IMG/VR virus record: IMGVR_UViG_3300040856_003274
Span: 32,001-96,000 of that record
DNA: 64,000 bases
Reading direction: 5' to 3' (one strand)
Source: a virus
Shown: positions 37,977 to 62,439 of the stretch, piece after piece
Layout: the number at the start of each line of letters is the position of its first letter
How positions within the stretch are numbered: position 1 is the first letter of the stretch
Notes under the pieces: model-generated
What the model saw: the letters and a program-made list of their open reading frames with translations, nothing else
Told to the model about the DNA's origin: nothing
The model's database searches: none
Position numbers and translations under genes: made by a program

Positions 37977-39314
37977 ATGCAAACCATAGTAATAGACACT
38001 TCGGTGTTCATCCACGATCCAAACGCGGTAGACAACTATCAAGGCCACAGGGTCGCTGTCCCCATCTACGTCATTATGGAGCTTGATGACTTAAAAGACG
38101 CTAAGAAAGGTGAGGTGTCACAGCTTGCTCGTAAAGCCTCTAACAAGATCCTAATGTACCTCAACGAGGACTCGTTCGACGGTGAGCTAGAGGTCATCGG
38201 TTTAACGGAAGCTGATTTAGGTGTGGACACGCTCGACAAGTCTTTTATGGACACCAACCGTAAGATGGACACTCTCATCTTACAGAGTGCGATTGGTCAA
38301 AAGCGAGCTGGACATGAAGTGCTGCTACTAACCAAGGATATTAATCTTAGGATACTCGCGCTCTCTGAGGGCTTGCAGGCTGAAGATTACGACATCGACC
38401 ATGTGTCTATGAACGAGATATGGAGAGGCTCTCAAAAGATTAACACTGACCAGCTTTCTTCTGACGCTTTCGCTGACGTGGTGGAGTCTTATTGGAAGGG
38501 CGCGGTTAACCTAGACACAGTTAGAGAGCACCTCAGAGCTGACCCTATCCAAAACGAGTTTATCGTCTTTGATGAGGGCGGTAAAACTCACTTGTTTAGG
38601 CACGACAAGGGCAAGTGCGTACCTATCGACAAGAAGGAGACGCATTGTAATCTTAAGGCGCGTAATCTTGAGCAGACAATGGCGCTTAATCTGCTAGGAC
38701 GTAGCGACATCGAGCTCTGCTGTATCATCGGCAAAGCGGGGACGGGCAAGACGATACTTGCTTTGGGCTCAGCCCTAGCTCAGCTCGGCAACGGCGCGGG
38801 TTATTACGACCGTATAATCTTAACCAAGCCCGTTGTAGATGTGGGGCGCGGTATCGGTTTTCTTCCAGGGGGCATCGGTGAGAAGATGGAGCCTTGGATG
38901 CAGAGCTTCTTCGACAACCTCGACCAGCTCCTCCCTCCTACAGGGTCTGATAAAGAGAAGGGGGCGCATAAGGCTGAGAGCACATGGCTACCACTCCTTG
39001 AGAGCGGTGTGATTGAGATACAGCCTATCAACACAATTCGAGGGCGCTCTCTGAGTAGGTCATTCATGATCATTGACGAGGCGCAGAACCTCACTAAGCA
39101 TGAGGTCAAGTCTATCATTACGAGAGCCGCAGAAGGCACTAAGGTAATCTTAATGGGTGATCCCTACCAAGTAGACAACCCTTACCTTGACAAAAACAAT
39201 AACGGGCTCGTCTATGTCGTGGAGCGCATGAAAGGTCAGGACTGCTTCGGCGCTACGATGCTCAAGCGGTCTGAGAGATCAAGACTGTCAGACCTCGCGG
39301 CTGATCTCCTCTAA
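37977..39314 (+). CDS. phoH: PIN-PhoH (PhoH2) protein
   Basis: VIDTSVFIHD and LLTKDINLR (PIN); GKAGTGKT, IGFLPG, IRGRSL, IIDEAQN, GDPYQVD (PhoH). Confidence 0.93.
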   Translation: MQTIVIDTSVFIHDPNAVDNYQGHRVAVPIYVIMELDDLKDAKKGEVSQLARKASNKILMYLNEDSFDGELEVIGLTEADLGVDTLDKSFMDTNRKMDTLILQSAIGQKRAGHEVLLLTKDINLRILALSEGLQAEDYDIDHVSMNEIWRGSQKINTDQLSSDAFADVVESYWKGAVNLDTVREHLRADPIQNEFIVFDEGGKTHLFRHDKGKCVPIDKKETHCNLKARNLEQTMALNLLGRSDIELCCIIGKAGTGKTILALGSALAQLGNGAGYYDRIILTKPVVDVGRGIGFLPGGIGEKMEPWMQSFFDNLDQLLPPTGSDKEKGAHKAESTWLPLLESGVIEIQPINTIRGRSLSRSFMIIDEAQNLTKHEVKSIITRAAEGTKVILMGDPYQVDNPYLDKNNNGLVYVVERMKGQDCFGATMLKRSERSRLSDLAADLL

Positions 39315-40909: not shown

Positions 40910-43006
40910 TCAGAGACGCGACTTGATCAGTGCGATGAGCACCTTAGCAAAACCCTCAAAGGGCAACGCGAGGCTGTCATCACCGAAGAGGTTCTGAAGT
41001 GTCGAGAGGGCGATGCCTGAGCCTAAGCCGACACCTACCACAATAACACCCTTTTCCCTCGCCCTTCTGACCATATAGCGCGTGGGTGCTTGGTGGTCAC
41101 CGTTTGCGGCTCCATCTGTTAGCACCAACAACACTTTGTGTGTCGCGTCTTGGGCGTAGAGCCCATTATTCGCTTCACCGTATAGTGCATAGTAGATGCC
41201 ATCAGCCGTGGGAGTGCCACCGTTCGCATACACCTCAGAGCAACGGCGCTTTGAGGTGAGGTCCCATTTTTCACTGAACCGCTTGTGGTAGCGGATAGTG
41301 GCCTCACAACGGCGCGTGTAATGATCACGCGTGCCGTAAAATGATCCACACATGAACGCGAGAGCCTCAGTACGCGCACCTATTGCGCTGAACGCATCCA
41401 TCAGTGCATACAGTCCTGAAGCGGTTGGCGAGGTGTGACCATCCATACTAGATGAACCGTCCACAACCACGCTAAGCGCGATGTTTGGCTTGATGATGTC
41501 AACGTCTTTTCGCATAGGGCGCGTAGGAACGACACCTTGGCTAAGCTCAACCTTCGACGGTACGAGTCTCCGGGTCGATAACTTCCCGCGCTTCGTACCA
41601 TGCCTAGTCTCACGGCGGAAGCCGAGAAACAATCGGTTGAGCTCCCGCTTCGCTGACCCGCTCTCTGCGCTCGCACGCTGAGATACTTGACACTGAATAA
41701 AAGTGGGCGCGACGTGCGCGTCACGCACGTCATCATCCTCATACGAGAAAGGTTGATATTGCTCCTCGTCAGCTTTCAACTCCGCTTGAGCTTCGTTGAT
41801 TTTTGAGTCAACAACATCTGTCCAATCAGGCTGAGAGATGTCCCAATCGTCCTCAAAGGGGCGAGGTTGTGGGTCATCAGACCCTCCCCCTATCCCCCCT
41901 TCAGAGTCAGAGTCACTGTCAGAGTCAGAGTCACTGTCAGAGTCACTGTCAGAGTCACCCTTTGAGTCACTGTCAGAGTCAGAGTCACTGTCAGAGTCAC
42001 TGTCAGAGTCACTGTCAGAGTCACCCTTTGAGTCACCCTTTGAGTCACCCTTTGAGTCACCCTTTGAGTCACCCTTTGTTGAGTCATCGTCGCTAGGTTG
42101 TGGATCACCTCCGCCTTGTTGATCAGACTCTTCACCTCCACCGCCACCACCTCCACCGCCACCCGTAGGAGGCTTAGGGGGGGGAGTCAGCGCGAGGTCA
42201 CGAGCGAGATCAAGCGCGATAATCCAAGGCATCCACTGATCACGCTCAGTCTTACCTCCGAGTGCATGGCAACGCGCCACGTACTCGTCAAGTTTAGGCC
42301 AAGCGTGTACCAACGGGTGATACTCAGTCAGCGCCTTAACTTGCTTAGGTGTCTGATAACCGAACCCTTTGTCTCTGATGAGGAAAAAGATGCTCTGCAC
42401 AAAAGCAGTGCGGTCATTCTCAGTCTCGATCTTCTGATAATGGGAAGACCGAGCGGTCGTTTCCATATCATACAATGAGTCTGCGAGCGCCTCAAGAGTG
42501 AGTCGCGCCCCTGGGAAGGTGGCGCATCCGAACCGCTCGATCCTAATGTCCTCGATGATGTTAGTCATCGACTGTAGCTGACTCTCAAGGCCAACATAGT
42601 TAAAGCCTTTCATCTTAGCCTCTGTCTCAGCTACGACCCAATCGGGTACGGAGCCGAGAGCAGAGAGCAGACTATGAAGCGCCTCATGTGTCGCTCCTCC
42701 GCGTAGGTAGAGCTCCACCTGAGCATTAACCTCTTCAGGAGTCGAAGCGATTGTCACCATCGGTGACACAGAGCCAATGCGACTATCCGCGTAGAGCTTA
42801 GCATCGGTAACCGACGCTTTGCGTGTGCAGATCGCATGAGTGAAAAATCGCATTGTCCAAGCATTCCTGTTGGAGTAGGACGAACCTTGACTCCTGATGG
42901 TCGGTGTGATCGCGTCTGAGTTATGCAAAATACTGATCAGGGTCTGTCGATGCGCTTGGCGCACAACAAACCCGCTTTTGGTTTTGTTTCGAGTTATCGC
43001 TTTCAT
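40910..43006 (-). CDS. CobT-like metallopeptidase-fold + acidic linker + vWA domain protein
   Basis: THEALHS...NIIEDIRIE; (DS)n linker; MIDAS VVDGSSSM, GGTPT, VLTDG. ATG 43006 lies downstream of the promoter box. Confidence 0.85.
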   Translation of the reverse strand: MKAITRNKTKSGFVVRQAHRQTLISILHNSDAITPTIRSQGSSYSNRNAWTMRFFTHAICTRKASVTDAKLYADSRIGSVSPMVTIASTPEEVNAQVELYLRGGATHEALHSLLSALGSVPDWVVAETEAKMKGFNYVGLESQLQSMTNIIEDIRIERFGCATFPGARLTLEALADSLYDMETTARSSHYQKIETENDRTAFVQSIFFLIRDKGFGYQTPKQVKALTEYHPLVHAWPKLDEYVARCHALGGKTERDQWMPWIIALDLARDLALTPPPKPPTGGGGGGGGGGEESDQQGGGDPQPSDDDSTKGDSKGDSKGDSKGDSKGDSDSDSDSDSDSDSDSDSDSKGDSDSDSDSDSDSDSDSDSEGGIGGGSDDPQPRPFEDDWDISQPDWTDVVDSKINEAQAELKADEEQYQPFSYEDDDVRDAHVAPTFIQCQVSQRASAESGSAKRELNRLFLGFRRETRHGTKRGKLSTRRLVPSKVELSQGVVPTRPMRKDVDIIKPNIALSVVVDGSSSMDGHTSPTASGLYALMDAFSAIGARTEALAFMCGSFYGTRDHYTRRCEATIRYHKRFSEKWDLTSKRRCSEVYANGGTPTADGIYYALYGEANNGLYAQDATHKVLLVLTDGAANGDHQAPTRYMVRRAREKGVIVVGVGLGSGIALSTLQNLFGDDSLALPFEGFAKVLIALIKSRL
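41898..42085 (-). repeat. Coding DS/KGDS low-complexity repeat
   Basis: GAGTCACTGTCA and GAGTCACCCTTT 12-bp units on the + strand. Confidence 0.9.
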
Positions 43007-43080
43007 GCGGATATCCCTTTGGTCAAAAGGCTCAGAGAGCCTGTTAAAACATGGGGAGCGAGCGCCCCCCTTACCTACAC

Positions 43081-43104
43081 TACGGATTACTTTTTTCCCC
43101 CGAC
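43081..43104 (-). promoter_or_regulatory. 24-bp conserved promoter-like box
   Basis: Exact copy upstream of the vWA gene. Confidence 0.8.
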
Positions 43105-43166
43105 ATTTGACTCTATAAGGTCGCCTGCGCCTAGCGTTATACGCGGGCGCTTGCGCCCGTGTAGGG

Positions 43167-43211
43167 ACGTATAGAATTGGCAATGGGATTTGGTGTCTGA
43201 ATTCTATACGT
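43167..43211. promoter_or_regulatory. Central inverted-repeat hub (core in reverse orientation)
   Basis: ACGTATAGAATT-N21-AATTCTATACGT. Confidence 0.8.
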
Positions 43212-43355
43212 GGTGGGAGGGGTCGGGCTCGCGTGTGTGGGTGTAATGTGCGGGTAATGTTACGCGCTATGCGAGCTCGCGAGCTCGCGCTACCTTAGGC
43301 GCTGGCTCGCGAGTCTGTATGCGAGCCCGTAATGTTACACCTACACACGGCTAAT

Positions 43356-43379
43356 GTCGGGGGAAAAAAGTAATCCGTA
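43356..43379 (+). promoter_or_regulatory. 24-bp conserved promoter-like box
   Basis: Exact copy; first of a tandem pair. Confidence 0.8.
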
Positions 43380-43461
43380 ATGTTAGTAAAGGGAGCGGGT
43401 AGCTGACCTACCGCTAACAAGGCGTTTGTGCTAGTCTTAGGGCTAACATTAGCGTTACGTT

Positions 43462-43485
43462 GTCGGGGGAAAAAAGTAATCCGTA
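43462..43485 (+). promoter_or_regulatory. 24-bp conserved promoter-like box
   Basis: Exact copy 106 bp after the previous one. Confidence 0.8.
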
Positions 43486-43567
43486 ACCTTATCAGATGGG
43501 AGGCACTACGCTTCCCTTGTTTCACTGTGCTCTCTCAGAGAGAGCCCTTAAACTTTAAGGAGTATAC

Positions 43568-44617
43568 ATGAGTAAGCATGTATGTCCGTTCTGTAACTCT
43601 CGCGTCAACACTACCCGCAACTGTTGCGATAGCATGAAAGCTGTCCGTGACAGCATGGTTGAAGGAATCAAGAGAGCGCCTCTTCAAGAGGCGCTTTTTG
43701 GCGTTCCTTTGAGCGTCAACCAAACGGCCTACTCCCAAGAGGAGTTGCTCCCGTTCGATCCGCACTTTCAGCTTCCCCGTCAAGGGACACCCGCGTGGAC
43801 TTCTATGCGGAGGGTCGTAAAGGCTTGGGAGTCTAACAAGCCCTTCGTCGTAACGGGAGGCATGGGGCGCAGTAAAGACGCGATCCTCGGATTGCTCAGT
43901 AACCTCACCAATAGGCCGTGTCTTCTCATTAGCTGTGCTCGCTCAACCGATATTGAGGGATTCCTCTATACTCTCGGCTTCAACGCAGAGGGTACTAGCT
44001 ACTCTTATGGGGCTTTATGGAAGGCCCTCACAGAGGGGCATCCCCGAACGGGGGAGCCAATGGTGATCGTCTTAACAGATTTCGACAGGATGAGCCCTGA
44101 TCAGCTCGAAAGGTTTCGCATGATCCTTGATACGACCGCAGGGCGCATTAATGCTCCCGATGGTCGCATCGTGCCTATCAAGCCAGGTACTCTCATTTGC
44201 GCTACCGCTAACTCGGTTGGTAGTGGCGCGGAAGGGTATGTTTGCGAGGTCATTGATGAGTCTATGAAAGACCGCTTTGCGCGGTTCATCGAGGCTGAAG
44301 CGATGGACTCCACAGACAGGGCGCGTATATGCTGTGAGCGTTACTCAGCGCCCACAGAGTGGGTTGAGCCTATCGCAAACTGTCTCAGTGCTCTTGAGTC
44401 TAGTATAGCTCAAGAGGCGCTAGAGTCATTCAATGACTTCAGCTTCCGCGCAACCTCAGCATGGGTCGAGAGCGCTATGCAGGAGCTTGAGCTAGGGAGT
44501 GGGCAACCGCTCCGTGACGCGCTTTTCGATGTCCTCGACAAGCGCGAGCCCGAAGTGAAGCAAAAGATCGAAAACTTATTCGATCCTCACCTCCCTCGCG
44601 ATCCCGCAGGGAGCTGA
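43568..44617 (+). CDS. MoxR/CbbQ-like AAA+ ATPase with atypical Walker motifs
   Basis: VTGGMGRSKD (Walker A-like), IVLTDFDR (Walker B-like), ATANSVG, IDESMKDRF, FSFR; AAGGAG RBS. Confidence 0.8.
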   Translation: MSKHVCPFCNSRVNTTRNCCDSMKAVRDSMVEGIKRAPLQEALFGVPLSVNQTAYSQEELLPFDPHFQLPRQGTPAWTSMRRVVKAWESNKPFVVTGGMGRSKDAILGLLSNLTNRPCLLISCARSTDIEGFLYTLGFNAEGTSYSYGALWKALTEGHPRTGEPMVIVLTDFDRMSPDQLERFRMILDTTAGRINAPDGRIVPIKPGTLICATANSVGSGAEGYVCEVIDESMKDRFARFIEAEAMDSTDRARICCERYSAPTEWVEPIANCLSALESSIAQEALESFNDFSFRATSAWVESAMQELELGSGQPLRDALFDVLDKREPEVKQKIENLFDPHLPRDPAGS

Positions 44618-44662
44618 GACGCTGACTGAGACGCTGACTGAGACGCTGACTGAGACGCTGAG
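44614..44662 (+). repeat. 12-bp tandem repeat CTGAGACGCTGA x4
   Basis: Begins at the AAA stop codon. Confidence 0.85.
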
Positions 44663-44665
44663 ATT

Positions 44666-44730
44666 ACAGAACGGTTGAGAGCCCCCCTTCCTGCGCTTGC
44701 GTAGGTCGGGGGGCTTCTCTGTCGGGAGTA
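44666..44730 (+). terminator. Island-terminal hairpin ending TCTGTCGGGAG
   Basis: AGCCCCCC...GGGGGGCT stem followed by TCTCTGTCGGGAG. Confidence 0.65.
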
Positions 44731-44733
44731 ATC

Positions 44734-44788
44734 CCCTAACCTTAAGCCCTAACCTTAAGCCCTAACCTTAAGCCCTAACCTTAAGCCC
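44734..44788 (+). repeat. 13-bp tandem repeat CCCTAACCTTAAG x4
   Basis: Read directly. Confidence 0.9.
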
Positions 44789-45032
44789 CTTGCTCGCCTC
44801 CTCTGTGGAGGTCAGCAAGGGGCTTTCCTATACGGACTACTACCTAAAATCTGTATGAGGGTCGGGTCTGAGGTGGCTAGGTGAGGTGTGCGATTGCCTA
44901 GCCACTATGAGCACTTAGCCCCTAGAGCTTTTTGTGCTTATTTGCAAGCGAGGCGAACGAAACATGAGGGCTAGTGTGTATAGGAGATAGCAGGTGGCAA
45001 TCAGGCCACCGCTTCGACACAGGAGACAGCCC

Positions 45033-45647
45033 ATGAAGGCTACCCTAACTAAGTGCGAGCGTTTCGGCGCTGACCATAAGATGATTGATCACGGCTTCAG
45101 TAAGTACGCGATGCCAAGGCTCGGCACAGATGAGCAAGGTTCGCCCGTGGTGGTCTTACAGGTGTGGGATTACGATAACCCTATCCGTGAAGAGCAGATA
45201 CACCTCACACATCATGAGGTCGAGAGCGTGTCTCTCAGCAAGGGCCACGGCTCTTACTCAGAGGAGGGAGTCACGGCACACTATGCAGAGTGGACGTACA
45301 CGCTGACACTCACAGAAGAGGCGGGCTATGTTGTCTTAAAGGGAGTGGGTGATGAGATGGTGTTCATCTCTTGGACTGCGCTTTATGGAGACGGTCAGCG
45401 GAGCTTCCAAGACCAAGAGGGCAACGCGGTTATGTGGAGCGCGGGAGGCTTTCATGAAGAGCTCCCCTCGGTGGAGGATGAGGCTAGGGCGCTGGCGCGT
45501 CGGCTTAACCCGCTCACCGATCTTGACCTCATCTCTAGCCTCCGTGGTCTTTGGGAGCGCAAGCAAGGGTTGCGTCACCAAGCCTGCGACATACTACGCA
45601 AGGGGACTGCTAAGCTCCTCTTTGATGGTAAGCCACCTGAGGTCTAA
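45033..45647 (+). CDS. Hypothetical protein
   Basis: AGGAG RBS before ATG 45033. Confidence 0.65.
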   Translation: MKATLTKCERFGADHKMIDHGFSKYAMPRLGTDEQGSPVVVLQVWDYDNPIREEQIHLTHHEVESVSLSKGHGSYSEEGVTAHYAEWTYTLTLTEEAGYVVLKGVGDEMVFISWTALYGDGQRSFQDQEGNAVMWSAGGFHEELPSVEDEARALARRLNPLTDLDLISSLRGLWERKQGLRHQACDILRKGTAKLLFDGKPPEV

Positions 45648-45648: not shown

Positions 45649-45792
45649 CTCTCGGAGCGTCAGCTCTCGGAGCGTCAGCTCTCGGAGCGTCAGCTCTCGG
45701 AGCGCCTGCTCTCGGAGCGTCAGCTCTCGGAGCGTCAGCTCTCGGAGCGCCTGCTCTCGGAGCGCCTGCTCTCGGAGCGTCAGCTCTCGGAG
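45649..45792 (+). repeat. 15-bp tandem repeat CTCTCGGAGCG(TCAG/CCTG) x9.5
   Basis: Read directly; starts just after the 45647 stop. Confidence 0.92.
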
Positions 45793-45799
45793 GATTTCT

Positions 45800-48700
45800 T
45801 ACTGTCTAAAATCTGTATGGGGGGTCGCGGGTGCAGGTACGGGGGAGGAGGTTGGAGGTACTCATACACTCGCGAGGCTGAGGAGGTCTTGAGGTTGAAG
45901 GCGCTCATACACTCGCGAGGCTAGACCGCTTGAGGCTTGGGAGTGTTCATACAAGTAGAGAGTGTGGCTACCTTGTGGAGGTGCTCATACAGAGGTGGCG
46001 GGTGGCGGGTGGAGCTAGACTGTGAGAGTGTTCATACAGAGAGGGAAGAGGAGGAGGGGAAGATGGAGGCACTCATACAGAGAAGGTGAGGGGAGGGGGA
46101 AGGTGGAGGCACTCATACAGAGAGGGAAGAGGAGGAGGGGAAGATGGAGGCACTCATACAGAGAGGGAAGAGGAGGGGGAAGGTGGAGGCACTCATACAG
46201 AGAGGGTGAGGGGAGGCTTCGGTGAGGGTGTTCATACAGAGGCGGTGGGCGAGGGTGAGGTTGGGTGAGGTTGGGTGAGAGTGTTCATACATTACTCTCT
46301 TCAGTCCTCCAAGACGTGTGGGTGCTCATACAGAGTAGAGGAGGACGAGCTACCCGCTGACCTTAGGGAACAGGGGAGAGGGAGGAGGGGGAGAGGGGGT
46401 CGCGTATGTGAGGTGTAGGTGTTCATACTCGCACGCGTACAACGCTCAACGCTCAACGGTTGACCTTAGGGAACAGGGGAGGTGGTGCAACCCTCAACGC
46501 TCAACGGTTGACCTTAGGGAACACACCCAATAACGCTCAACGGTCGCAACGCTCAACGGTATGTGTTGACGCTAGGGAATGAGCACAACCTCCAACGCTA
46601 ACATTAGATGTGGGTGTTCATACATACGCGAAGCCGTGGCTCTGTATGAGTTGACCTTAGGGAACAGCAGAGAAGCTAGAGGCGCGTTGACCCTGTAGCA
46701 TTAGGTGTGGGTGTTCATACAGAGGCTGGCTAAAATCTGTAACGCGTGCGCGTATGCGCCATGTGCGCCTGACCCTCAACGCTATAAGTTGACCTTAGGG
46801 AACAGGTGACCGCCTGAGTAGTTGAGCTAGAGGTCAGGTGAGGACTCGGCCCTGTAATATTAGATGTGAGCGTTCATACAGGGTGGGGGGGCTGTGGTGA
46901 TCTCGCATAGCCTTGTGTGACGTTAGGGAATGGAGAGGGCTCAACCCTAACATTAGATGTGGGCGTTCATACAAGGTGGGGGGCTAGGCGCGTGAGCCAG
47001 CTTGACATTAGGGAATGGGAGGAGGTGAGAGGGCCTCTCAATCAATCAACGACAAAGCCCTCTCATGTACAGGTTCTAGCCAGGCAGGTTTTCCAACACC
47101 GCGCTTAACGAGTCTTTAGAACCTGTATAGCGCACAAGAGAGGCTCGGTCGCCTCTCAAAATCGGCTGAGCTAGAGTAGTTTAAGTGGGGACATTCATAC
47201 ACGCGTGTGTCTCAAAAGCCCCATTTTACGGCACTTAGGAAGTTGCCGATTTTGATAGGATGAGCGAGGCGAGGGCTAGAGAGGCTCAAAAGGGGCTCAG
47301 AGAAGGCTCTAATGTTATGTAGGTGTTCATATAACGAGGGGTGGGCGGGTGCGGTGAGTGAGGCGCGAGTGGAGGTGGCGCGAGGGTAACCCTAATAACC
47401 TACTTAGAACCTGTACAGGCTGTGGTGGGGTGTAGCTGAGCTGAGCCGAGACACGCTGACGTTAGGGAACAGGTTATGGCTTACTGAGCCTGTGGAGGCT
47501 GACATTAGATGTGGGCGTTCATACAGACAGGGTGTTTAGAACCTGTAGCGCGGAGGCGAGCTCTCGCCTCTTACTGACTCGCTCAACACTATGAGCTGAC
47601 GTTAGGGAATGGGTAGCGGGCTTGAGCTGAGCTTGGGCCTAACTGAGTCTGACATTAGGGAACAGTTGGGCGGGAGGGGTCGGTGGCGACCCTAACGTTA
47701 GATGTGGGCGTTCATACTACTCTTTATCTAAAATCTGTATTAGGGGGTTCGGGCGCATCTGTAGAGGCGGGCTCTCGTATGTGTTGACGTTAGGGAACAT
47801 CTAGACAGGGGGCAGAGCTGAGAGCAGACACGCTCAGCCCAACTCGCAATATTAGATGTGGGCGTTCATATAATGAGCGGTGGGCTGGTTGGGCTCACTC
47901 CTTGTACACTTGACGTTAGGGAACAGCTCGCTTGTCTTGAGCGCCCCGCGCCACCTCTCGCTCCTATGTGATGTGGGCGTTCATACAGACAGGCGGGGCT
48001 CGCCCTTAAGACACGCTCCTTGACATTAGGGAACAGGGAGACAGGTTGCGCTCTCTCCTGTCACGCTCTGAGACACCTTGACTCGTTCGCTCAAGGCTAC
48101 TAGAACCCGTATAGTTAGAACCTGTATAGGTCGCGCTCAGCCTCTCTGCTTGAGCCTTGAGCAGGGCTCTAGTGGGTGGATGATGGGGACATTCATACAC
48201 GCGTGGGGGGCTCAAAAGCCCCAAAATAGGGCTCAAAATGGTTGCCGTCTTTGATAGAGAGGCGTTTTGCCCCCTCTGAGCCTCTCTCTGAGCCCTCTAG
48301 CGGTAGCTGTTATAGGTATTCATATAAGAGTGGTGGCTGTGAGGCTGAGCGAGCTTGCGCAGGCTCGCGTGGAGTCTCCTAGTGCTTCCGCGAGCTGTCG
48401 AGAGAGACGCGAGGGTGACCCACCCGTTGGCTTGACGTTAGGGAATGGGCAGAGGCTATTTAGAACCTGTATGATGAGCAAGCACCCGCCCTCTGACATG
48501 ATGTCGGTATTCATATAATGAGCGGTGAGCCCCGCCTCGCCTCCCTAACCTTAGTTTGACATTAGGGAACAGTGGGCGAGGGTGGGCGAGGCGGCACAGC
48601 ACCCCTAATGTCATGTCGGCGTTCATATAGCGAGCGGTGGGCTGTCTCCTTCAAGGCAAGCTGGCTTGACGTTAGGGAATGGTAACGGGAGCTGACCTTG

Positions 48701-51700
48701 ACCCTCACCTGCTGTGGCTTGACATTAGGGAACAGTGGACGAGCTCTCCTGAAGCTAGGCTAGAACCTGTATAATCTAAAATCTGTATTAGGGGGCTCGG
48801 AGGGCTACCGACCCCTCCCGTAATATTAGATGTAGGCGTTCATATAAAGACGATCTCGCCTTGCCCCTCTAGACTGGTAGACGCTAGGGAATAACTAGCC
48901 CTATCTAAAATCTGTATTAGGGGGCTCGGAGGGGCTATCGCACCCTCTACGGTCTGATGAGAGCGTTCATACAAGGTCGGTGCTGAAGCAAGGCTCTCGT
49001 ATGTGTTGACGTTAGGGAACAACAGGTCGGCTCGAAATCTCCCTGTGGCGAGCGCCCCTTTACAGGTTCTAGCTAGCCTTGTACGGCTGAGGGCGGGTCG
49101 AGTAGCTCAAGCAGCACCCCACAGGCTAAGTTGACATTAGGGAACATTACAGCGGCCTTAGCGTCAGCGTCTCTAACATTAGCCTAATATCATGTCGGCG
49201 TTCATATAAGGGCTGAGCCGAGATCGTCCTAGCTCGTATCTGCCGTGGCTTGACGTTAGGGAACAGGCGGGCAGAGGTGAGCCAACCTAAGAGATAAAAT
49301 GTAAACATTCATACAAGGAGCTAGGGCTACGCTCAGATGACCCAATATACCTGACGTTAGGGAATAGCTCAGCCTGACAGGTAGCCCTTTTGCCTCGCTT
49401 GATGTTAGGGAACATCAGGGCTACCCTCGCGCTTGTCTGAAGTCGGCTTGAGATACGCGGAGCGCCCCTCTCACGTTCGGATGTAAACCGCGCCCACACG
49501 CTAAGCTCTACTAGAACCTGTATAGAGCCCGACTCAGAGTGCTTTGTTGGGGACATTCATACCCGTAGAGAGGGCCAAAACACCCTCCAAGAGGGCTATT
49601 TTTGTTGGCGACTTTGATAGGATGGGGCTCAAACCCCCGAAAATACGGTACTTTTTGTTGGCGACTTTGATAGACCTATTTTTCGTGGGATCATTCATAG
49701 CGTGTGCGGGTGAGAGCGGCTTTTTGGCTCGCCTTTTGGAGAGACTAGAACCTGTATAAACTAGAACCTGTATGGTACTAGAACCTGTATAATACTAGAA
49801 CCTGTATGGTACTAGAACCTGTATAATCTCTCTTATGTGGGACCATTCATAGCGTGTGCGGGTGAGGGTGGCCTTTTGGCTCGCCTTTTGGAGAGACTAG
49901 AACCTGTATAATACTAGAACCTGTATAATACTAGAACCTGTATGGTACTAGAACCTGTATGGTACTAGAACCTGTATAATACTAGAACCCGTATAATCTC
50001 TCTTATGTGGGATCGTTCATAGCGTGCGTATGTGAGAGGACGCGCTCCCCCTCCTAGACGATGTAGGCGTTCATACATACTTAGAACCTGTATGGTACTA
50101 GAACCTGTATAATACTAGAACCTGTATGGTACTAGAACCTGTATGGTACTAGAACCTGTATAATACTAGAACCTGTATGACCTGAGCCTCCCCCTAGGTG
50201 ATGTAGGTATTCATACAGGGGGGGCTGACCCCCCCCCTCCCCTGTGAGTTGACCTTAGGGAACAGCAGACAAGCCTAGAACCTGTATAATATTAGAACCT
50301 GTATAATACTAGAACCTGTATAATACTAGAACCTGTATGACCTGAGCCTCCCCCTTGTCCCTTGTGTTGACGTTAGGGAACAGGGGGGGTGAGCCTCCCC
50401 CTAGAGGATGTCGGTATTCATACAAGGAGGGCGAGCCCCTTTTAGTTGAAGGTTAGGGAACAGTAAAACGTCTCAGATCGCTCTCTGAGGCGCTTTAGCT
50501 CTCAAGCCTGCTCTACCCCTAGCTTAAGGACTCTAAAGAGCACACGAGCGAATTTAGAGCCCTCCCTCGAAGGCTTTAAGCTGGTTATGCGACCCGCCAA
50601 AAGACCCCCTAGATGATGTAGGTATTCATACAGGGCGGGCTGAGGGTGGCTCAGGGCAACCCCTTGTGTTGAGGTTAGGGAATGGGAGAGGCTGTTTAGA
50701 ACCTGTATAATATTAGAACCTGTATGACCTGACCCGACCCTGCCCCTTGTGTTGACGTTAGGGAACAGGTGGCCTGAGCCTCCCCCTAGATGGTGTCGGT
50801 ATTCATACAGGGCGGGCTGAGCCTCCTCCTCCCTTGTTGAGGTTAGGGAATGGAAGGAGCTGTTTAGAACCTGTATGGTACTAGAACCTGTATGACCTGA
50901 CCCGACCCTGCCCCTTGTTGACATTAGGGAACAGGTAGCCTGACCCTCCCCCTAGATGGTGTCGGTATTCATACAGGGCGGGCTGAGCCTCCTCCTCCCT
51001 TGTTGAGGTTAGGGAATGGAAGGAGCTGTTTAGAACCTGTATGGTACTAGAACCTGTATGGTACTAGAACCTGTATGACCTGACCCGACCCTGCCCCTTG
51101 TTGACATTAGGGAACAGGAGGCTAGGCTGACCCCCTAGAGGATGTAGGTATTCATACAAGGCTCCCCCTAGGCGCTCCCCCTCCCTTGTTGAGGTTAGGG
51201 AATGGGAGAGGCTGTTTAGAACCTGTATGGTACTAGAACCTGTATGACCTGACCCCCCCCCTCCCCTTGTTGACATTAGGGAACAGGAGGGCTAGGCTGA
51301 CCCCCTAGAGGATGTAGGTATTCATACAGGAGGGCTGAGCCTCCCTCTAGGCGCACCCTCTTGTTGACATTAGGGAATGGGAGGAGCTGTTTAGAACCTG
51401 TGTAATATTAGAACCTGTATGACCTGACCCCCCTCCCCTTGTGTTGACATTAGGGAACAGGAGGCTAGGCTGACCCCCTAGACGATGTAGGTATTCATAC
51501 AGGGTGGGCTGGGGGTGGCTCAGGACGCACCCTCTTGTTGACACTAGGGAACAGGGGGCTGTTTAGAACCTGTATAATATTAGAACCTGTATAGCATGGG
51601 CTCCCCCTAGGCGCTCCCCCTTGTGTTGAGGTTAGGGAACAGGAGGGCTAGGCTGACCCCCTAGATGGTGTCGGTATTCATACAGGGCTCCCCCTAGGCG

Positions 51701-52960
51701 CTTCCCTTGTGTTGAGGTTAGGGAATGGGAGAGGCTGTTTAGAACCTGTATGGTACTAGAACCTGTATGACCTGACCCCCCCTCCCCTTGTGTTGACGTT
51801 AGGGAACAGGAGGGCTAGGCTGGCCCCCTAGACGATGTAGGTATTCATACAGGGTGGGCTGGGCCTCCCCCTAGGCGCACCCTGTGAGTTGACATTAGGG
51901 AATGGGAGGAGCTGTTTAGAACCTGTATGACCTGAGCCTCCCCTCCCCTTTGTTGACGTTAGGGAACAGGCGGCTAGGCTGACCTCCTAGATGGTGTCGG
52001 TATTCATACAGGGTGGGCTGGGGTGGCTCAGGACGCACCCTGTGAGTTGACATTAGGGAATAGGAGAGGCTGTTTAGAACCCGTATGACCTGAGCCTCCT
52101 CCTCCCCTTGTTGACGTTAGGGAACAGGTGGCCTGACCCTCCCCCTAGGCGCTCCCCTGTGAGTTGACGTTAGGGAACAGGTGGCTAGGCTGACCCCCTA
52201 GATGGTGTTGGTATTCATACAGGTGGCCTGAGCCTCTCAGGACAGCCCCTCCCTTGTTGACATTAGGGAATGGGAGGAGCTGTTTAGAACCTGTATGACC
52301 TGAGCCTCCTCCTCCCCTTGTTGACGTTAGGGAACAGGCGGCCTGAGCCTCCCCCTAGAGGGTGTCGGTATTCATACAGGTGGCCTGAGCCTCCCTCTCC
52401 CCTGTGAGTTGACATTAGGGAACAGGTGGTCTGACCCTCCCCCTAGGCGCTCCCCCTTGTTGACATTAGGGAACAGGTGGTCTGACCCTCCCCCTAGAGG
52501 GTGTCGGTATTCATACAGGTGGGCTGGGGGTGGCTCAGGACAGCCCCCCTTGTTGACGTTAGGGAACAGGAGGGCTAGGCTGACCCCCTAGAGGATGTAG
52601 GTATTCATACAGGGGGGGTGGGCCTCCCTCTAGGCGCTCCCCTTGTTGACGTTAGGGAACAGGGGGGGTGGGCCTCCCCCTAGGCGCTCCCCTTGTTGAC
52701 GTTAGGGAACAGGGGGGTGGGCCTCCCTCTAGGCGCTCCCCTTGTTGACGTTAGGGAACAGGGGGGTGGGCCTCCCTCTAGGCGCTCCCCTTGTTGACAT
52801 TAGGGAACAGGGGGGGTGAGCCCCTGTGGAGCCTCCCCCTTGTTGACGTTAGGGAACAGGGGGGGTGAGCCTCCCCCTAGAGGATGTCGGTATTCATACA
52901 GGGGGTGAGCCCCTGTGGAGCCTCCCCCTTGTTGACATTAGGGAACAGGGGGGGTGAGGC
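45800..52960 (+). repeat. About 7-kb non-coding polarised multi-motif array
   Basis: Dozens of TGA(C/G)NTTAGGGAAY, ..RTTCATA(C/T) and TAGAACCTGTAT boxes, nearly all on +; no credible gene. Confidence 0.9.
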
Positions 52961-53364: not shown

Positions 53365-54387
53365 ATGAGTGCTAAACATAAGAGAGACGTGGAGTTGCTT
53401 TTGTCTTATATGCCTGACAATGGTTTCTTACAGGGCTTATCAAACAGACTAAGGACAGGTATGAGCTTGACACCTAAGCAGGTGAGCGCCTTGGAGGGTA
53501 TTAAAGCTCGAATGTCGTCTAAGCAAGCTAAGATTAAGCGAGACAAGGCGAGGGTATCAGAGGCTCTAAGGGTATATTCAGAGAACCCTTTCTTGCAGAG
53601 TCTCTTGGAGCATTTAAGTGACGGCAAGTCTATGAGCGCGAAGCAAGACGAGGCGTTAACGGCAATCGAGGAGAGAGCCGCTCGTAGATTAGCGAATATG
53701 GAGAGGCGGTCTGCTGGAGTTAAGCGTGAGATGTTGAGTGTCTTGAGGGGTTTATCTAGAGTGTCTGACTTGAGCCCTGAGGAGAGTGAGTTTGTGAGGC
53801 GCATGATGAGTCTAGTGGAGGGCGACCTTAAGATTAGCGTGAGGCAGAAGAGTTACATTAGGGGTTTATGTAGTAGGCATTTGGACTCGGCGCGTGGTCG
53901 TAGCTCTGCGGATAAGTTTGGTGCTAAGGTGAAGAAGCATTTTGGTGGGAGGGGTAAGAAAGCGTCGGTGAGTCGTGCTTGGGATTATGACAGGGGGGAG
54001 TGGGCATATCGTGTGGGTGGTGGTAAGATTAAGTATGCGAGTGAGGAGGTCTTAGATTACAAGGTTGAGTGGGGTGATCCGCCGAAGCCTAATGCGTGGA
54101 GAGCAATACTTAAAGGTAGGATGTCAGATGGTCGTATTGAGGTCACTTCGCCTTTGATTGTGGGGAGGATTATGTTCAACATCTTCCCTCATGAGATAGA
54201 TGTTTCTTACAGACGTAAGGGTTACTCTGCTGTTGACCTTGGGACGATCAGGAGGCATGGCGACATGGACAGTATTTTCAGTCATGCGACGTACACTAAG
54301 TATATTAAGCCTGCGATTTTGAGTGGTGCGCTTGAGCTGGGGAGTCAGGGGAAGAAGATCGCTTCAGGAGAGGGGTTTGAGGGATGA
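53365..54387 (+). CDS. Basic helical-repeat protein with one C-terminal WGDPPKPN unit
   Basis: Repeated FLQxL...G.S[LM][TS].KQ helices, then KKAS, KYAS-WGDPPKPNAWR unit ending KIAS. Confidence 0.8.
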   Translation: MSAKHKRDVELLLSYMPDNGFLQGLSNRLRTGMSLTPKQVSALEGIKARMSSKQAKIKRDKARVSEALRVYSENPFLQSLLEHLSDGKSMSAKQDEALTAIEERAARRLANMERRSAGVKREMLSVLRGLSRVSDLSPEESEFVRRMMSLVEGDLKISVRQKSYIRGLCSRHLDSARGRSSADKFGAKVKKHFGGRGKKASVSRAWDYDRGEWAYRVGGGKIKYASEEVLDYKVEWGDPPKPNAWRAILKGRMSDGRIEVTSPLIVGRIMFNIFPHEIDVSYRRKGYSAVDLGTIRRHGDMDSIFSHATYTKYIKPAILSGALELGSQGKKIASGEGFEG

Positions 54388-56144
54388 GCACTTATAGTCT
54401 TAAAGCTCAATGGGGAGCACCCCCGAAGCCTAACTTGTGGAAGGTAGAGCACAGTGAAGACCATCAAGGTCATAATAAATGGACGGTCACGTCCCCTGCG
54501 ATGGCAGGCGCTGTAATGCTAATTCACTCTAAGAAAGCCTATCCTGAATGGTGGGTAAACTACTATAGGGATAGGAAAGAGACGCATAGTAGGTCTACTA
54601 ACTATAAACGGATTTATAGTTATTTTGCCCACGCAAATGGAGAAATGACGGACGCTGAATGTTTCAAGCATTTTTTTAGTGAGGGGTTTTACAGGGAAGT
54701 AATCACAGGTTTTATTAAAAACGGTTTGATTGAGCTCAAAGTGCCTAAGGTAGCTTCTTCTAACCTTGAGGCTCAATGGGGCGACCCTCCTAAACCTAAT
54801 GTGTGGAAAGTAGAGTACGATAAGGCTTTTACTCAGTACACGATCAAGTCGCCTGTGTTAGAGGGTCATTTCGTTGTGAAGATGTACCCACCTAGCTCGG
54901 CGGAGATAAAATTCTTTGACGCTACAAGAGGAGTGACTTGGGCGAGGTATCTCAGCCCTGTAACGATAGAGGATATCTTGTCTCGTCAATTCTATCTTGA
55001 GAGCATTAAACCTGCGATTTATTTGACGCAGGAGATAAGACTTAAGAAAGGCTTAAAAGTGGCTTCTTCAGAGATTAAACTTCAATGGGGCGACCCTCCT
55101 AAACCTAATGTGTGGAAGGTAAAAGAGAGGCCAGGGAGAGGTGTTAAACACCGTGGTTACATCTTCGACATCTCTACACCTTTAGACCCTTATCTAGGGA
55201 TAACGATCCATCAAAGTCCATCTAACTGGGGAACAAGAAAAGCCTATAGGACAGCCGTGTATTACGGGTCTAGCTGTCTTATTGAGAATGCGGCTGGCTT
55301 TCTTGTCTCTGAAGGTGCTCATCCCGCAGATACTTTCAGCACTCAGTCTTTTTGGGATCGCATAAAAGATGAGATTAGAGATAAGACACCTACTTCTATG
55401 AAGGTAGCTTCTTCTAACCCTCAAGCTCAATGGGGCGACCCACCTAAGCCTAACATATGGAAGGTGGAGACGCTTCAACGCTCTAAGATGGTCGCGCTAA
55501 CTCGCGTAACTTCACCTGTCTTACAGGGCTCAATATGGCTTGGCGTATATGGGGCGGTTTTTTACTGCCCACATGACAAGATGCCCTCACCTCTTACAGA
55601 AGAAAAGATGGTAGAGTTTGAGAACAATCTTGATCCGACGAAAGACCATGTTGATATTACAAGGATCATGGGGATCAATCCAAAGAGACTTTTCCTCTCT
55701 AATAAGTTTTATTTAGAGCACTTAGCGCCTAAGATTGCAGGCGGGATCATTAGGTTAAACGGTAATGTTAAGGTTGCTTCAGGAGAGGCTCTCAAAGCGA
55801 TGTGGGGCGACCCCCCTAAACCTAACGTATGGTCGGTTGAGGAGGTTAGATATGGCTGGGAGCCAATGTATCGAGTGTTCTCACCTTTGATGGAGGGTGA
55901 GGTATGGTTAAGCGACTCGCTTCTCGTTTACTACTTCCCCAAGGGCTTAGGTCTTCCTCAAAGAAAACTAGGGCCTGACTGTGACCTGCGAAGCCTATCG
56001 TTAGTAGACGGTAACTACCCGTTGCAGAGGTTAAAAAGCGCCAAGAGCAAAGAGCACTTCTTGTCTCAAGCGTTTTGGTTAGAGCACCTTAAGAGCAATA
56101 TACATCTTAAAACAAGTAAGCTGGCTTCTAAGAGAGGTAAATAA
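54384..56144 (+). CDS. WGDPPKPN-repeat protein (5 units)
   Basis: Five motifs joined by KVAS; ends KLASKRGK. Confidence 0.88.
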   Translation: MSTYSLKAQWGAPPKPNLWKVEHSEDHQGHNKWTVTSPAMAGAVMLIHSKKAYPEWWVNYYRDRKETHSRSTNYKRIYSYFAHANGEMTDAECFKHFFSEGFYREVITGFIKNGLIELKVPKVASSNLEAQWGDPPKPNVWKVEYDKAFTQYTIKSPVLEGHFVVKMYPPSSAEIKFFDATRGVTWARYLSPVTIEDILSRQFYLESIKPAIYLTQEIRLKKGLKVASSEIKLQWGDPPKPNVWKVKERPGRGVKHRGYIFDISTPLDPYLGITIHQSPSNWGTRKAYRTAVYYGSSCLIENAAGFLVSEGAHPADTFSTQSFWDRIKDEIRDKTPTSMKVASSNPQAQWGDPPKPNIWKVETLQRSKMVALTRVTSPVLQGSIWLGVYGAVFYCPHDKMPSPLTEEKMVEFENNLDPTKDHVDITRIMGINPKRLFLSNKFYLEHLAPKIAGGIIRLNGNVKVASGEALKAMWGDPPKPNVWSVEEVRYGWEPMYRVFSPLMEGEVWLSDSLLVYYFPKGLGLPQRKLGPDCDLRSLSLVDGNYPLQRLKSAKSKEHFLSQAFWLEHLKSNIHLKTSKLASKRGK

Positions 56145-56145
56145 A

Positions 56146-58332
56146 ATGAGCATTCAGTTAAGAGTTATGTGGGGCGATCCTCCCAAGCCTAATGTGTGGC
56201 AGATTAAGCATACTCCTGCAATCCCTGCTAGGAAGAAGTCTGAGAGTTGGGTCATTCAGTCGCCTTTGCTCCTTACTAGCTTCACTGTCTACAAGAGAAA
56301 GCAGACAGGCAGGTTTGTTGTTTACTACGGCGAAGGTCTTAATACAGGTAAGGTTTCAGGTAATAACGGAGATTGGTATTTAGAGTACATCTTGTCTAAT
56401 GAGTGGTACATGGAATACATAAAGCCTCTTATAGAGAGCGGATATATTAGGAAGCGAGATGATAACCTCAAGATCGCGAGTGAGATGAAGGACGCAGAGG
56501 TCATGTGGGGCGATCCTCCTAAGCCTAATGCGTGGAAAGTCTTCTTTGAAGACGGCTACGGCGCTAGAAATGACCGATGGAGGGTAGTGTCGCCTCTTAT
56601 TGTGGGACGTATTTTGATAGTGGAAGACGGCCCTTACTTCCGCTTTTCTTATGTCGTCAGCCTCAAAAATTATGTTACTATGTTTAGTGTGCCTAAGAAT
56701 AAAGTGAAAGGTAATACGCTCGGCAAGGCGCTGTTTAGTCACGCGATGTGGGAGAAGATAAGACCTTATGTTACGGACGGGACGATTGTCCTCAACGTAC
56801 CCAAGATTGCTTCAGAGCAACTTCCAGGTAATCTCGAAGCTCATTGGGGGACTCCTGCTAAGAAGAACATATGGAAGGTAAGAAACATCTTCAACAACCC
56901 TGATATGGTTGAGGTCACGTCACCTTTTATGGAGGGTGCGATTGAGGTGCATACTAACCAAGGTTATTCTAACGGGATTTACTACCCTGATTTGAATAGC
57001 ATTGAGGGTAAAGTGGCGCTTTGGAAAATAGAGAGGGGAGATTTAAGCTACGTCTTGAGCTCAGAAGGTTACAAGAACCTTATAAAGAAGCATATCGACA
57101 TGGGAGTTATTAAGATTAAGAGAGGCTCTAAGGTAGCGTCCTCAGAGATTAAGCTCCAATGGGGTGACCCCCCTAAGCCTAATATGTGGAAAGCAGAGCG
57201 GATAAAAGGGAGCACTCAATCTCGTTTAACGTACTTAATAACCTCACCTCTATTTAGGAGGACAATAGACGGTGATCGGTTTGCGCTAAAGGTACAAATC
57301 GACCCGTGGGCTAACGAGGCTATCATCAACCTATTTTACCAATATAACGCTAGAACAGGGATGCCTTTAGGTACTTATCAACTGTCAGAAGACTACTTCC
57401 ACAACATCGACCATTTACTTGCTCATTCTTCTACATGGGCGCTTGCGATAAAGCCAGCTTTAGCTCGCGCTGAGAGAGAATGGAGTCAGTCGATATTAAC
57501 AAGTAAAGTAGCGTCTACTGCTGTTAAACTCCAATGGGGTGATCCCCCCAAGCCTAATATGTGGAAGGTTAGACGCTATTTGGGTCAAAACAACTTTATT
57601 ATCACATCGCCTTTATTTAGTGATGTTTATAACTACGGTGGCGACGTTACGGCGCTAAGGGTAAGCATATCAAGAAGCACCAACCCCAATCGCGGCACGT
57701 TTATACCCAAAGCATCTTTCAGCTTCGGGTTGTTGGAAGAAAACGGCAACTTTATAAATAAGGTTAGCGGAGGTGAGAAGTTTGATAAAGACTTTGAGCT
57801 AGAGGTGGTCAATAATCGAGTCCTTCTAAACTCTGAAGAAGTGTTGAAATCACATAGCTTTTGGAAAAATGCCGTAAAACCTGCATTAGAGAACATAAGC
57901 ACAGGATGGTCATACGGAGAGGTTTTCAAAAGTAGAGTAGCCTCCCTCCGCACTAACTGGTTTCCTGACCATGTAACAAGTAACCCCCAAGTTAAGCTAA
58001 ATTGGGGGAGCCCTGCGAAGCCTAACATTTGGAAGGCTTGGAGAGGCGATAGCGGAGACTCTTTCTTTTACTACATAGAGTCACCTTTGTTGAAAGACAC
58101 TTGCATAGAGATCCGTGTAGACCAAAGGAGCACTGTGGCAGAGGTTTTCTTCTATGATGACAATGATGGGGACATGCGAAAAGTTAAGCATATAAGTCTT
58201 GCTTCTAGAGGGACTGACCCCTTTGAGTTAGATGAGGATGTTCGATCAGAGGAGTTTTGGAATTTTGTGGTTAGCCCTCAGCTTAAGGGACACGGGCATC
58301 TCAACAATGTTAGGATCGCCTCTGAGTTTTAA
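56146..58332 (+). CDS. WGDPPKPN-repeat protein (6 units)
   Basis: Six motifs joined by KIAS/KVAS/RVAS; ends RIASEF. Confidence 0.88.
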   Translation: MSIQLRVMWGDPPKPNVWQIKHTPAIPARKKSESWVIQSPLLLTSFTVYKRKQTGRFVVYYGEGLNTGKVSGNNGDWYLEYILSNEWYMEYIKPLIESGYIRKRDDNLKIASEMKDAEVMWGDPPKPNAWKVFFEDGYGARNDRWRVVSPLIVGRILIVEDGPYFRFSYVVSLKNYVTMFSVPKNKVKGNTLGKALFSHAMWEKIRPYVTDGTIVLNVPKIASEQLPGNLEAHWGTPAKKNIWKVRNIFNNPDMVEVTSPFMEGAIEVHTNQGYSNGIYYPDLNSIEGKVALWKIERGDLSYVLSSEGYKNLIKKHIDMGVIKIKRGSKVASSEIKLQWGDPPKPNMWKAERIKGSTQSRLTYLITSPLFRRTIDGDRFALKVQIDPWANEAIINLFYQYNARTGMPLGTYQLSEDYFHNIDHLLAHSSTWALAIKPALARAEREWSQSILTSKVASTAVKLQWGDPPKPNMWKVRRYLGQNNFIITSPLFSDVYNYGGDVTALRVSISRSTNPNRGTFIPKASFSFGLLEENGNFINKVSGGEKFDKDFELEVVNNRVLLNSEEVLKSHSFWKNAVKPALENISTGWSYGEVFKSRVASLRTNWFPDHVTSNPQVKLNWGSPAKPNIWKAWRGDSGDSFFYYIESPLLKDTCIEIRVDQRSTVAEVFFYDDNDGDMRKVKHISLASRGTDPFELDEDVRSEEFWNFVVSPQLKGHGHLNNVRIASEF

Positions 58333-59891: not shown

Positions 59892-60063
59892 AACGTCTCC
59901 TTTATTTATTAAATACTTACAGAGCATATCGAAGGATATGCTGCGCTTCGTTATGTAAAAAAACAACAGTATTATGGCTACCTTTTCTCTCTCGTAGTGT
60001 AGAGGTTTTGCAGGAGCTTTTCTTGCACTACACTACCTATTTTCCGAATGGAGGGAAAATAAT

Positions 60064-62418: not shown

Positions 62419-62439
62419 ATTTAGGCCGAGAGCGCACTG

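Follow-up and report, generated by a model that had tools for sequence, protein, structure and literature searches.

A Conserved Non-Coding Array of Three Oriented Boxes Adjoining a 204-Residue Protein Gene in a Very Large Phage

Introduction

Short sites repeated in many copies are known from several genetic systems. Iteron clusters (such as those of P1 incC/incA, RK2, R6K, and lambda ori) consist of oriented direct repeats of ~17-22 bp that are arranged in several clusters. Baculovirus hrs and the family of repeats of Epstein-Barr virus (EBV) oriP are built from one repeat type, often palindromic, with known binders, and the hrs are dispersed. The stoperators of mycobacteriophage L5 and of cluster A are intergenic sites distributed genome-wide and bound by the phage repressor. 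At the RNA level, the CsrB/RsmZ sponge RNAs and ToxI are 0.1-0.4 kb in length and carry their motifs in defined hairpins or pseudoknots. The PeSL cassettes that Arbiol and colleagues are said to have described in T4-type phages in 2010 are reportedly modules of a sigma-70-type early promoter and a stem-loop, which flank small genes and promote recombination. The present analysis concerns a 7.3-kb array of short oriented boxes (positions 45649-52960 of a 64,000-nt window of viral DNA) that directly follows a gene for a protein of 204 amino acids (aa).

The window corresponds to bases 32001-96000 of a single virus contig of 168,266 bp (IMGVR_UViG_3300040856_003274), which is classed as linear and for which the completeness estimate is ~40% of the genome. 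The contig encodes a long tail sheath, and its closest relative in the phage collection is the uncultured 485-kb phage LR745208 (42% identity); the contig is therefore part of the genome of a very large, myovirus-like phage. The non-coding DNA of huge phages, which are known almost only from metagenomes, is essentially unstudied, and literature searches retrieved no comparable array. An original prediction had described the region as a gene-free array of three polarized motifs and had suggested a multi-protein binding platform or a processed small-RNA array.

Box Composition and Orientation of the Array

The array is a conserved non-coding series of oriented boxes, confined to a single locus and in linkage with the 204-aa gene, which has a C′ box in its 5′ region. 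More than 150 box copies of three kinds are present in its 7.3 kb, namely box A (GTTGACNTTAGGGAAY), box B (ATGTNGGYRTTCATAY), and box C/C′ (CTAGAACCTGTAT or CTAAAATCTGTAT). Matches with at most one mismatch were counted in the 64-kb window, and expectations were taken from 100 dinucleotide-preserving shuffles. Box A (TGACNTTAGGGAAY) occurs 55 times (0.10 expected), always on the plus strand and always within 46358-52946, and the strict form of box B (TGTNGGYRTTCATAY) occurs 34 times (0.08 expected), again exclusively on the plus strand. A further 12-13 or so looser B units, of the form (C/T)TCATACA, lie at 45861-46331, and the TTCATA core gives a B total of ~46. For box C (TAGAACCTGTA), 49 copies were found (1.27 expected), 47 of them on the plus strand. 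Counts so far above the shuffles bear out the predicted recurrence of the three motifs, dozens of times each, on the plus strand, and the two minus-strand C boxes (47068-47078 and 49061-49071) are exactly the inverted copies that had been noticed originally. The C boxes fall into two discrete forms, TAGAACCTGTA and TAAAATCTGTA, and intermediates are absent. Across the whole 168-kb contig, the boxes are restricted to the array, with the C variant CTAAAATCTGTAT at 44844 as the sole exception.

The spacing of the boxes is loose (C-C 15-18 bp, A-C 20-23 bp, B-C 12-19 bp, and A-B 43-78 bp), and neighbouring boxes are 7 to 172 bp apart across the array. Tandem runs of a single kind are found for all three (period 17 bp for C, ~41 bp for B, and 49 bp for A), and each box is therefore a unit by itself. 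Tandem Repeats Finder reported periods of 15, 17, 41, 49, 93, 158, and 183 bp. Self-matches of ~75% identity cover 14-95% of each 400-bp bin in 46.4-49.6 kb (mostly 14-67%), and in 50.0-52.96 kb they cover 64-100% of each bin (six of the eight bins entirely), and each position has 8-18 matches. This coverage, together with the tandem repeats, agrees with the gradient from unique to homogenized spacers that had been proposed.

The description of the stretch as gene-free also stands, as no conserved reading frame was found. The longest open reading frame (ORF) in 45649-52960 is 140 aa in length and runs on the minus strand across the repeats, and none of the eight ORFs tested in the array reached a Pfam family cut-off. 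Only 3 of the 34 indels that separate three strains have a length divisible by three, which holds for none of the 17-, 41-, and 49-bp repeat periods. Box B was also considered as the start of a short peptide (ATG TGG GCG TTC ...), a reading that fails because many copies have a stop codon after the ATG (ATG TAG or ATG TGA) or have no ATG.

Conservation in Related Phages

A nucleotide search of the phage collection gave no match, protein searches with the flanking genes in IMG/VR and the phage collection found nothing, and no homologue of the 204-aa protein was found in LR745208. Relatives were reached via homologues of the 204-aa protein, and their contigs carry the array. The closest is L033, from a Joint Genome Institute (JGI) assembly, which is 99.86% identical over 5.7 kb and has 120 bp of extra minisatellite, followed by L032, from Logan (94.0% identity over 46103-48586), and by L152 and L090, which were recovered by motif scan (90% and 85% identity, respectively). 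A genus-level relative, L030, from the European Nucleotide Archive (ENA), encodes a neighbouring protein that is 65% identical and contains 6 kb of the array up to its contig end. In L030, the landmarks follow the same order as in the window (minisatellite, C′ box, B-only units, A/B part, three composite P elements of 70-75% identity, two inverted C boxes, C runs, and homogenized units). The box cores are retained in this contig (TAGGGAA, GGCGTTCAT, and an identical CTAGAACCTGTA), and the spacers are unalignable.

A profile search led to a more distant protein, P0008, which is 35% identical to the 204-aa protein and whose three carrier contigs all end shortly after the gene. In this lineage, a CTCGG-type minisatellite is located just after the stop codon, in one contig (L163) followed by CTAGAACCTGTAT and a GCTCATACA box, and C boxes are present upstream of genes too. 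In L161, a pyrimidine-rich array of ~750 bp (1163-1920; CCCTAACCTTAC... on the plus strand), bracketed by two C boxes, lies upstream of the gene of the 204-aa family. This array is an expanded form of the four-copy repeat found at 44734-44788 of the window.

The array thus recurs in five independent assemblies, with its start also in a more distant lineage, and it is neither an assembly artefact nor an oddity of one strain. The possibility of an artefact, which had been raised with the original prediction, is removed by the JGI, ENA, and Logan assemblies that reproduce the array, and the motifs persist in relatives with a neighbouring protein of 65% identity (the array) or 35% identity (the start of the array only). 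The assemblies of the relatives break within the array, whose presence accounts for the interruption of these assemblies at this place, and the motifs allow related genomes to be recognized.

A metagenome scan for tandem TAGAACCTGTA returned 120 loci, among which only L090 and L152 are true relatives. Box C was considered as a universal element and rejected, as the metagenome matches are almost all coding repeats with a 9-bp period. Such tandem TAGAACCTGTA repeats are common in metagenomes (L037-L156) and encode collagen-like Gly-X-Y repeats on the opposite strand or repeats of the Pro-Glu-Val type, which makes them a trap for motif scans. Pairs of A boxes in two unrelated bacterial metagenome-assembled genomes (L157 3079-3130, Chthoniobacterales; L158 1268-1337, Bacteroidota), each with two to three tandem copies of TGAC(A/G)TTAGGGAAY, are short intergenic duplications that are probably due to chance. 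One viral contig with a single A-to-B match was likewise set aside as chance.

Constraint on the Boxes and Drift of the Spacers

In an alignment of three strains (the window, L152, and L090), the proportion of variable or gapped columns is 6.7% for box A, 9.9% for box C (mostly copy-number indels), 12.5% for box B, and 21.6% for the spacers, so that box columns are ~2-3 times less variable than spacer columns. Compared with L032, the identity of the array (94.0%) is close to that of the four-fold degenerate sites of the 204-aa gene (93.8%), and the spacers therefore diverge at about the neutral rate. Constraint is limited to the boxes and the P elements, and the spacers are essentially free.

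The four-fold degenerate sites of the AAA (MoxR/CobS-like) gene next upstream are 54% identical to those of L032, and this difference from the 204-aa gene shows that the latter is inherited together with the array as one exchange block. A recombination breakpoint relative to L032 is located at ~44620-45030, between these two genes, and the phages are mosaic here. An apparently higher conservation of the array than of coding DNA (94% vs 82%, L032) was rejected on account of this mosaicism. In addition, the loops of two GC-rich hairpins are exactly inverted between strains and their stems are kept (47145-47150, TCGGTC vs GACCGA in L032; 47561-47562, CT vs AG in L090), which is a sign of palindrome turnover at the DNA level.

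Organization of the Locus

The features of the locus are listed from left to right in Table 1.

Table 1. Features of the array and of its left flank, in window coordinates.
Feature	Position	Strand	Description
Inverted mini-array of A-like boxes	44734-44788	-	CTTAAGGTTAGGG, 4.2 copies, read on the minus strand; Tandem Repeats Finder
C′ box CTAAAATCTGTAT	44844-44856	+	~190 nt upstream of the 204-aa gene
204-aa gene adjoining the array	45033-45647	+	Immunoglobulin (Ig)-like beta sandwich and C-terminal helix (model)
15-bp minisatellite CTCTCGGAGCGTCAG	45649-45792	+	9.6 copies; begins directly after the stop codon; Tandem Repeats Finder
First C′ box within the array	45807-45817	+	L163 equivalent: CTAGAACCTGTAT, then GCTCATACA box
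B-only units	45861-46331	+	Period 38-53 bp; purine-rich plus strand (G 42%, C 14%)
Alternating A and B boxes	46358-49413	+	Mostly unique spacers, scattered solitary C and C′; box positions and self-match
Composite element P1	47059-47335	+	Inverted C, C, hairpin, GGGGACATTCATAC, GTTGCCGATTTTGATAG, B box
Composite element P2	48100-48330	+	70% identity to L030 13385-13744
Second inverted C box	49061-49071	-	Syntenic inverted C box in L030 at 14492
Composite element P3	49512-49700	+	Duplicated GTTGGCGACTTTGATAG; within the AT-richest part of the array
Four tandem C runs	49746-50337	+	5, 6, 6, and 4 copies, 17-bp period, conserved spacers between; Tandem Repeats Finder and motif count
Homogenized higher-order repeats	50200-52608	+	~160-185 bp, order B, A, C, C, A; Tandem Repeats Finder and self-match
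Unique insert in the homogenized part	50440-50620		~180 bp; terminator-like hairpin 50472-50489, T-tail on the minus strand
A-only repeats, right end of the array	52609-52960	+	49 bp, 5.5 copies; Tandem Repeats Finder

Upstream of the 204-aa gene, the inverted mini-array lies between two hairpins, and the same element is present in L030. The C′ box at 44844 is followed by a G-run and then by a hairpin with a 9-bp stem, again at the same place in L030. A G-run usually comes after solitary C′ boxes, with a hairpin as well in several instances. CTCGG-type minisatellites occur at the equivalent place in L030 and L161-L163, and their copy number depends on the strain (longer in L033, as noted above, and with fewer copies in L032).

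The three P elements share one or more C boxes, GGGGACATTCATAC, a small hairpin with a CAAAA loop, GTTGCCGAYTTTGATAG, and a B box. P1, which includes the first inverted C box, is 72% identical to L030 12266-12484, in equivalent order along the array. The GC content of the array reaches its minimum (0.446) at 49.5-50.0 kb, beside the C runs, and C runs are present at the equivalent place in L030 (16-18 bp period) and L090 (16 bp). The unique insert is retained in L030 (15681-15850) and L090. The L030 hairpin homologous to that of the insert (15694-15716) has A- and T-runs on both sides; the insert hairpin resembles a bidirectional terminator, and the insert could mark a small minus-strand transcription unit.

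The 204-aa Protein and Neighbouring Genes

The 204-aa protein belongs to no Pfam or PHROG family. A structure model based on seven aligned sequences has a predicted local distance difference test (pLDDT) score of 79.5 and contains a beta sandwich with a C-terminal helix; an earlier model from four sequences (pLDDT 42) was too poor and was not used. Foldseek returned nothing for the model at E<=0.001, a wide structural search gave generic Ig-like matches only (Z<=6.5), and all scores in the protein atlas were below 0.9, so that they serve as leads only.

The original prediction had named the DndB/ParB-like gene at 60064 and the basic protein encoded at 53365 as candidate binders of the boxes. 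No evidence was found for either, and the gene at 60064 matches DndB only, without ParB_N.

Some other genes of the region deserve mention in their own right. A full-length gene for ATP-dependent phosphoenolpyruvate carboxykinase (58329-59966, minus strand; Pfam E = 2e-206) is an unusual auxiliary metabolic gene for a phage contig. A PIN-PhoH fusion protein is encoded at 37977-39314 (plus strand), and a divergent gene pair of VWA and AAA_5 (MoxR/CobS-like) proteins at 40910-44617; the synteny of both is kept in L030 and L033.

Possible Functions of the Array

The function tentatively preferred, at somewhat less than an even chance, is that of a multi-site protein-binding array that acts on DNA via its many copies, with box C as an operator- or promoter-type site, the C runs as an iteron-like core, and a part in replication or maintenance. 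We infer, rather than observe, that proteins bind the boxes, that the array acts as DNA, and that it serves replication or maintenance. The array would have grown by tandem duplication and unequal crossing-over, with purifying selection acting on the boxes only. Each box type may be the docking site of its own sequence-specific protein, and the many copies would then provide a high-avidity platform or sink on the DNA in which the array sits. Box C would serve as the operator- or promoter-type signal of the module, and the 17-bp C runs by the AT-richest segment (49.5-50.35 kb) may represent the iteron-like core. With such a core, the leading specific role would be the control or initiation of DNA replication, or the maintenance of the phage DNA. 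The array is probably transcribed rightward as well.

The general idea of a multi-protein binding platform, as put forward originally, fits the conserved boxes, the near-neutral spacers, and the flexible spacing, but the specific roles offered with it found no support in the form of a DnaA box, a Rep gene, ParB_N, or a GC-skew switch. Several observations weigh against binding on DNA in general or against a replication role in particular. The DnaA box TTATCCACA (at most one mismatch) is absent from 45.6-53.0 kb, and no GC-skew inflection is seen at the array on the scale of the contig. Rep, ParB_N, and sigma70_r2 were not found in the 168-kb contig (for ParB_N, the control genomes were positive; ParA was not searched), and a T7-type RNA polymerase was not matched either, although the control genomes were silent for it too. 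Since the contig represents only about 40% of the genome, these four absences are weak. The 204-aa protein is acidic (isoelectric point 5.25) and no DNA-binding fold was detected in its model; no binding protein was identified for the boxes, and no known family fits. The C-run spacing varies between 15 and 18 bp within and between lineages, which is unlike phased iterons. To our knowledge, 7.3 kb and more than 150 sites are far beyond any known origin or centromere. Binding on DNA and binding on an RNA copy would both account for the boxes, and the present evidence does not separate the two.

An array that works at the RNA level is nearly as likely as one that works on DNA. In this case, the C/C′ boxes would be promoters of a dedicated polymerase or factor that produces a rightward long non-coding RNA or many short RNAs, in which A and B would be linear sites that either sequester an RNA-binding protein or nuclease of host or phage, in the manner of a sponge or decoy, or belong to a small-RNA family with many copies. 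The boxes share the direction of the flanking plus-strand genes, and C/C′ boxes are located in the 5′ regions of module genes in three lineages (44844 in the window, 8310 and 9777 in L030, and twice in L161), always in the orientation of the gene and followed by a G-run and hairpin. A gene-end hairpin terminating in TGTCGGGA marks the island genes, with 11 sites at 25529-63596 (1.4 expected), and none follows the 204-aa gene or lies inside the array; apart from a site at 44720, it is absent from 44.8-61.0 kb. The gene-oriented C boxes and the missing gene-end hairpin together suggest, indirectly, rightward transcription into the array, and the GC skew of the array is positive, like that of the plus-strand genes. 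A succession of sites that act independently would fit the neutral spacers and their flexible lengths, the segments after box B fold slightly better than background, and L030 shows an excess of plus-strand hairpin-plus-T-tail sites between B and A (10 vs 4.0 ± 2.0 in shuffles).

On the other hand, no such excess of terminators exists in the window (3 vs 7.1 expected). Neither an Rfam family (E<=1) nor a tRNA was found in the array, and the mean folding z in sliding windows (-0.70 on the plus strand and -0.68 on the minus strand) equals that of the coding flanks (-0.78 and -0.87). True pairs of sequences flanking box A are no more usefully complementary than permuted pairs, no covariation supports GAAC/GUUC pairing between A and B, and no consensus fold was found for the P elements. 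The spacers have a single 18-nt match to the rest of the contig, in a purine-pyrimidine tract. Structured RNA and guide-like spacers are therefore not supported, and the earlier suggestion of a processed small-RNA array gains nothing from folding or covariation, although unstructured RNA motifs would escape such tests. It also counts against an RNA-level function that promoters only 17 bp apart would be too crowded to work independently and that the A-like arrays upstream have the opposite orientation to the C boxes.

A bolder proposal, which must be regarded as doubtful, is that the array is a new kind of phage device that works by copy number alone. With its three kinds of sites, on DNA or on a 7-kb untranslated RNA, it would serve the phage as a private landing pad or sink that titrates host factors (forms of RNA polymerase, nucleoid proteins, or nucleases of host defence) or organizes the huge genome in the cell, and unequal crossing-over would adjust its copy number in the course of an arms race with the host.

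It is unlikely that the array is a stack of promoters or RNA polymerase loading sites for very high or prolonged transcription of the downstream genes (53365-58332). The boxes do have a single orientation toward these plus-strand genes, with no strong plus-strand terminator between, and eight A copies carry TTGACA, a spacing of 16-17 nt, and TAGGCT. However, a TAnnnT hexamer at the right distance is present in 8 of 48 A boxes, all of one repeat subfamily, and in none of 36 in L030, a sigma-70 scan of the array gave 3 sites vs 4.8 expected, the boxes precede no other gene in 168 kb, and an AT-richer leader of 400 bp separates the array from the gene. The phage also has a promoter-like box of its own, of ~30 nt (TGTCGGGGGAAAAAAGTAATCCGTA(A/G)TGT), which differs from A, B, and C. 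Its eight invariant copies (26771-27030, 33480, 43081-43490, and 62395-62660) face outward in four accessory-gene islands and combine a -35-like TGTCGG, an 18-nt spacer, and a -10-like TAnnGT. On this evidence, boxes A, B, and C are not sigma-70 promoters. Likenesses of the boxes to T7/K11/SP6-type and SPO1 late promoters, the FliA -10 element, TorR boxes (TTCATA), sites of LexA, PhoB, and NtcA, CsrA GGA motifs, the T7 class II pause site (ATCTGTT), and rrn boxA serve as leads only, as neither the spacing nor the conserved positions agree in any of them.

Slightly less probable again is a genome-end or packaging region, that is, a terminal repeat, a pac-type zone, or a first-ejected or held-back segment. 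Large phages such as T5 and T7 have long gene-poor repeat regions in or beside their terminal repeats, and the breaks in the relatives' assemblies would agree with a genome end, but contig breaks are expected at any repeat, and the array is found midway along a continuous contig of 168 kb, with unique flanks to its left and right. Least probable is satellite DNA, selfish or without function, that persists through duplication and gene conversion and not through selection, for which the neutral spacer drift, the strain-dependent copy number, and the homogenized right part would speak, but which leaves the lower variability of the box columns and the persistence of box cores and landmark order in L030 and L163, despite unrecognizable spacers, unexplained.

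Whichever function applies, the locus is a conserved kilobase-scale array of cis-elements with fast copy-number evolution and a sequence vocabulary private to one place in the genome. Should it serve as an origin or in maintenance, no such element would have been defined earlier in this clade, and it would offer a starting point for the construction of replicons; as a decoy or sponge, on DNA or as RNA, it would represent a new type of host-takeover or counter-defence device.

Comparison with Known Systems

No known family fits the array when the defining features are tested. Like CRISPR arrays, it has conserved repeats that alternate with unique segments, and one of its ends is more uniform, but it is composed of three boxes instead of one direct repeat of ~23-47 nt, without a constant repeat or spacer length, the spacers have no targets in the contig, and Pfam and PHROG scans of ten neighbouring proteins found no Cas family. 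A ParABS centromere is defined by parS sites with parA/parB, and the ParB_N and ParA results are those given above. Likewise, a structured non-coding RNA family or small-RNA array would be recognized by covariation or an Rfam match, and a sigma-70 promoter cluster by a -35/-10 pair at most boxes; neither feature was found here.

With CsrB/RsmZ and ToxI, the array shares many copies of a short motif, and copy number matters for titration in those systems. B-only repeats of ~41 bp exist in the array, within the 34-45 nt range of ToxI-like repeats, but no comparable structure or partner gene was found at the array (for ToxN_toxin, no match was found in the contig, and the control genomes were silent too). 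The PeSL cassettes are similar in being repeated signal-plus-hairpin modules in a hyperplastic region of a large myovirus. Unlike them, the array has no ORFs between its boxes, the boxes are not sigma-70 promoters, and the TGTCGGGA hairpins are absent from it.

Stoperators resemble the boxes in being asymmetric sites of ~13 bp, present in tens of copies with one orientation relative to transcription, but the sites described here are packed in one gene-free array. Baculovirus hrs and EBV oriP are likewise kilobase-scale arrays of short repeats in a large viral genome that work via many copies (as enhancer, origin, or maintenance element), whereas three asymmetric boxes share one locus here and no binder was identified.

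Iteron clusters differ from the array in several respects, as the latter has at least 17 C boxes and two other box families over 7.3 kb, an unphased spacing of 15-18 bp, no detected Rep-type initiator or DnaA box, and a neighbouring protein without a winged-helix fold (model). The likeness to them lies in the C runs at 49746-50337, which are clustered, oriented direct repeats of the ~17-22 bp class, in the AT-richer segment beside these runs, and in the presence of a related site within the adjacent gene's promoter region.

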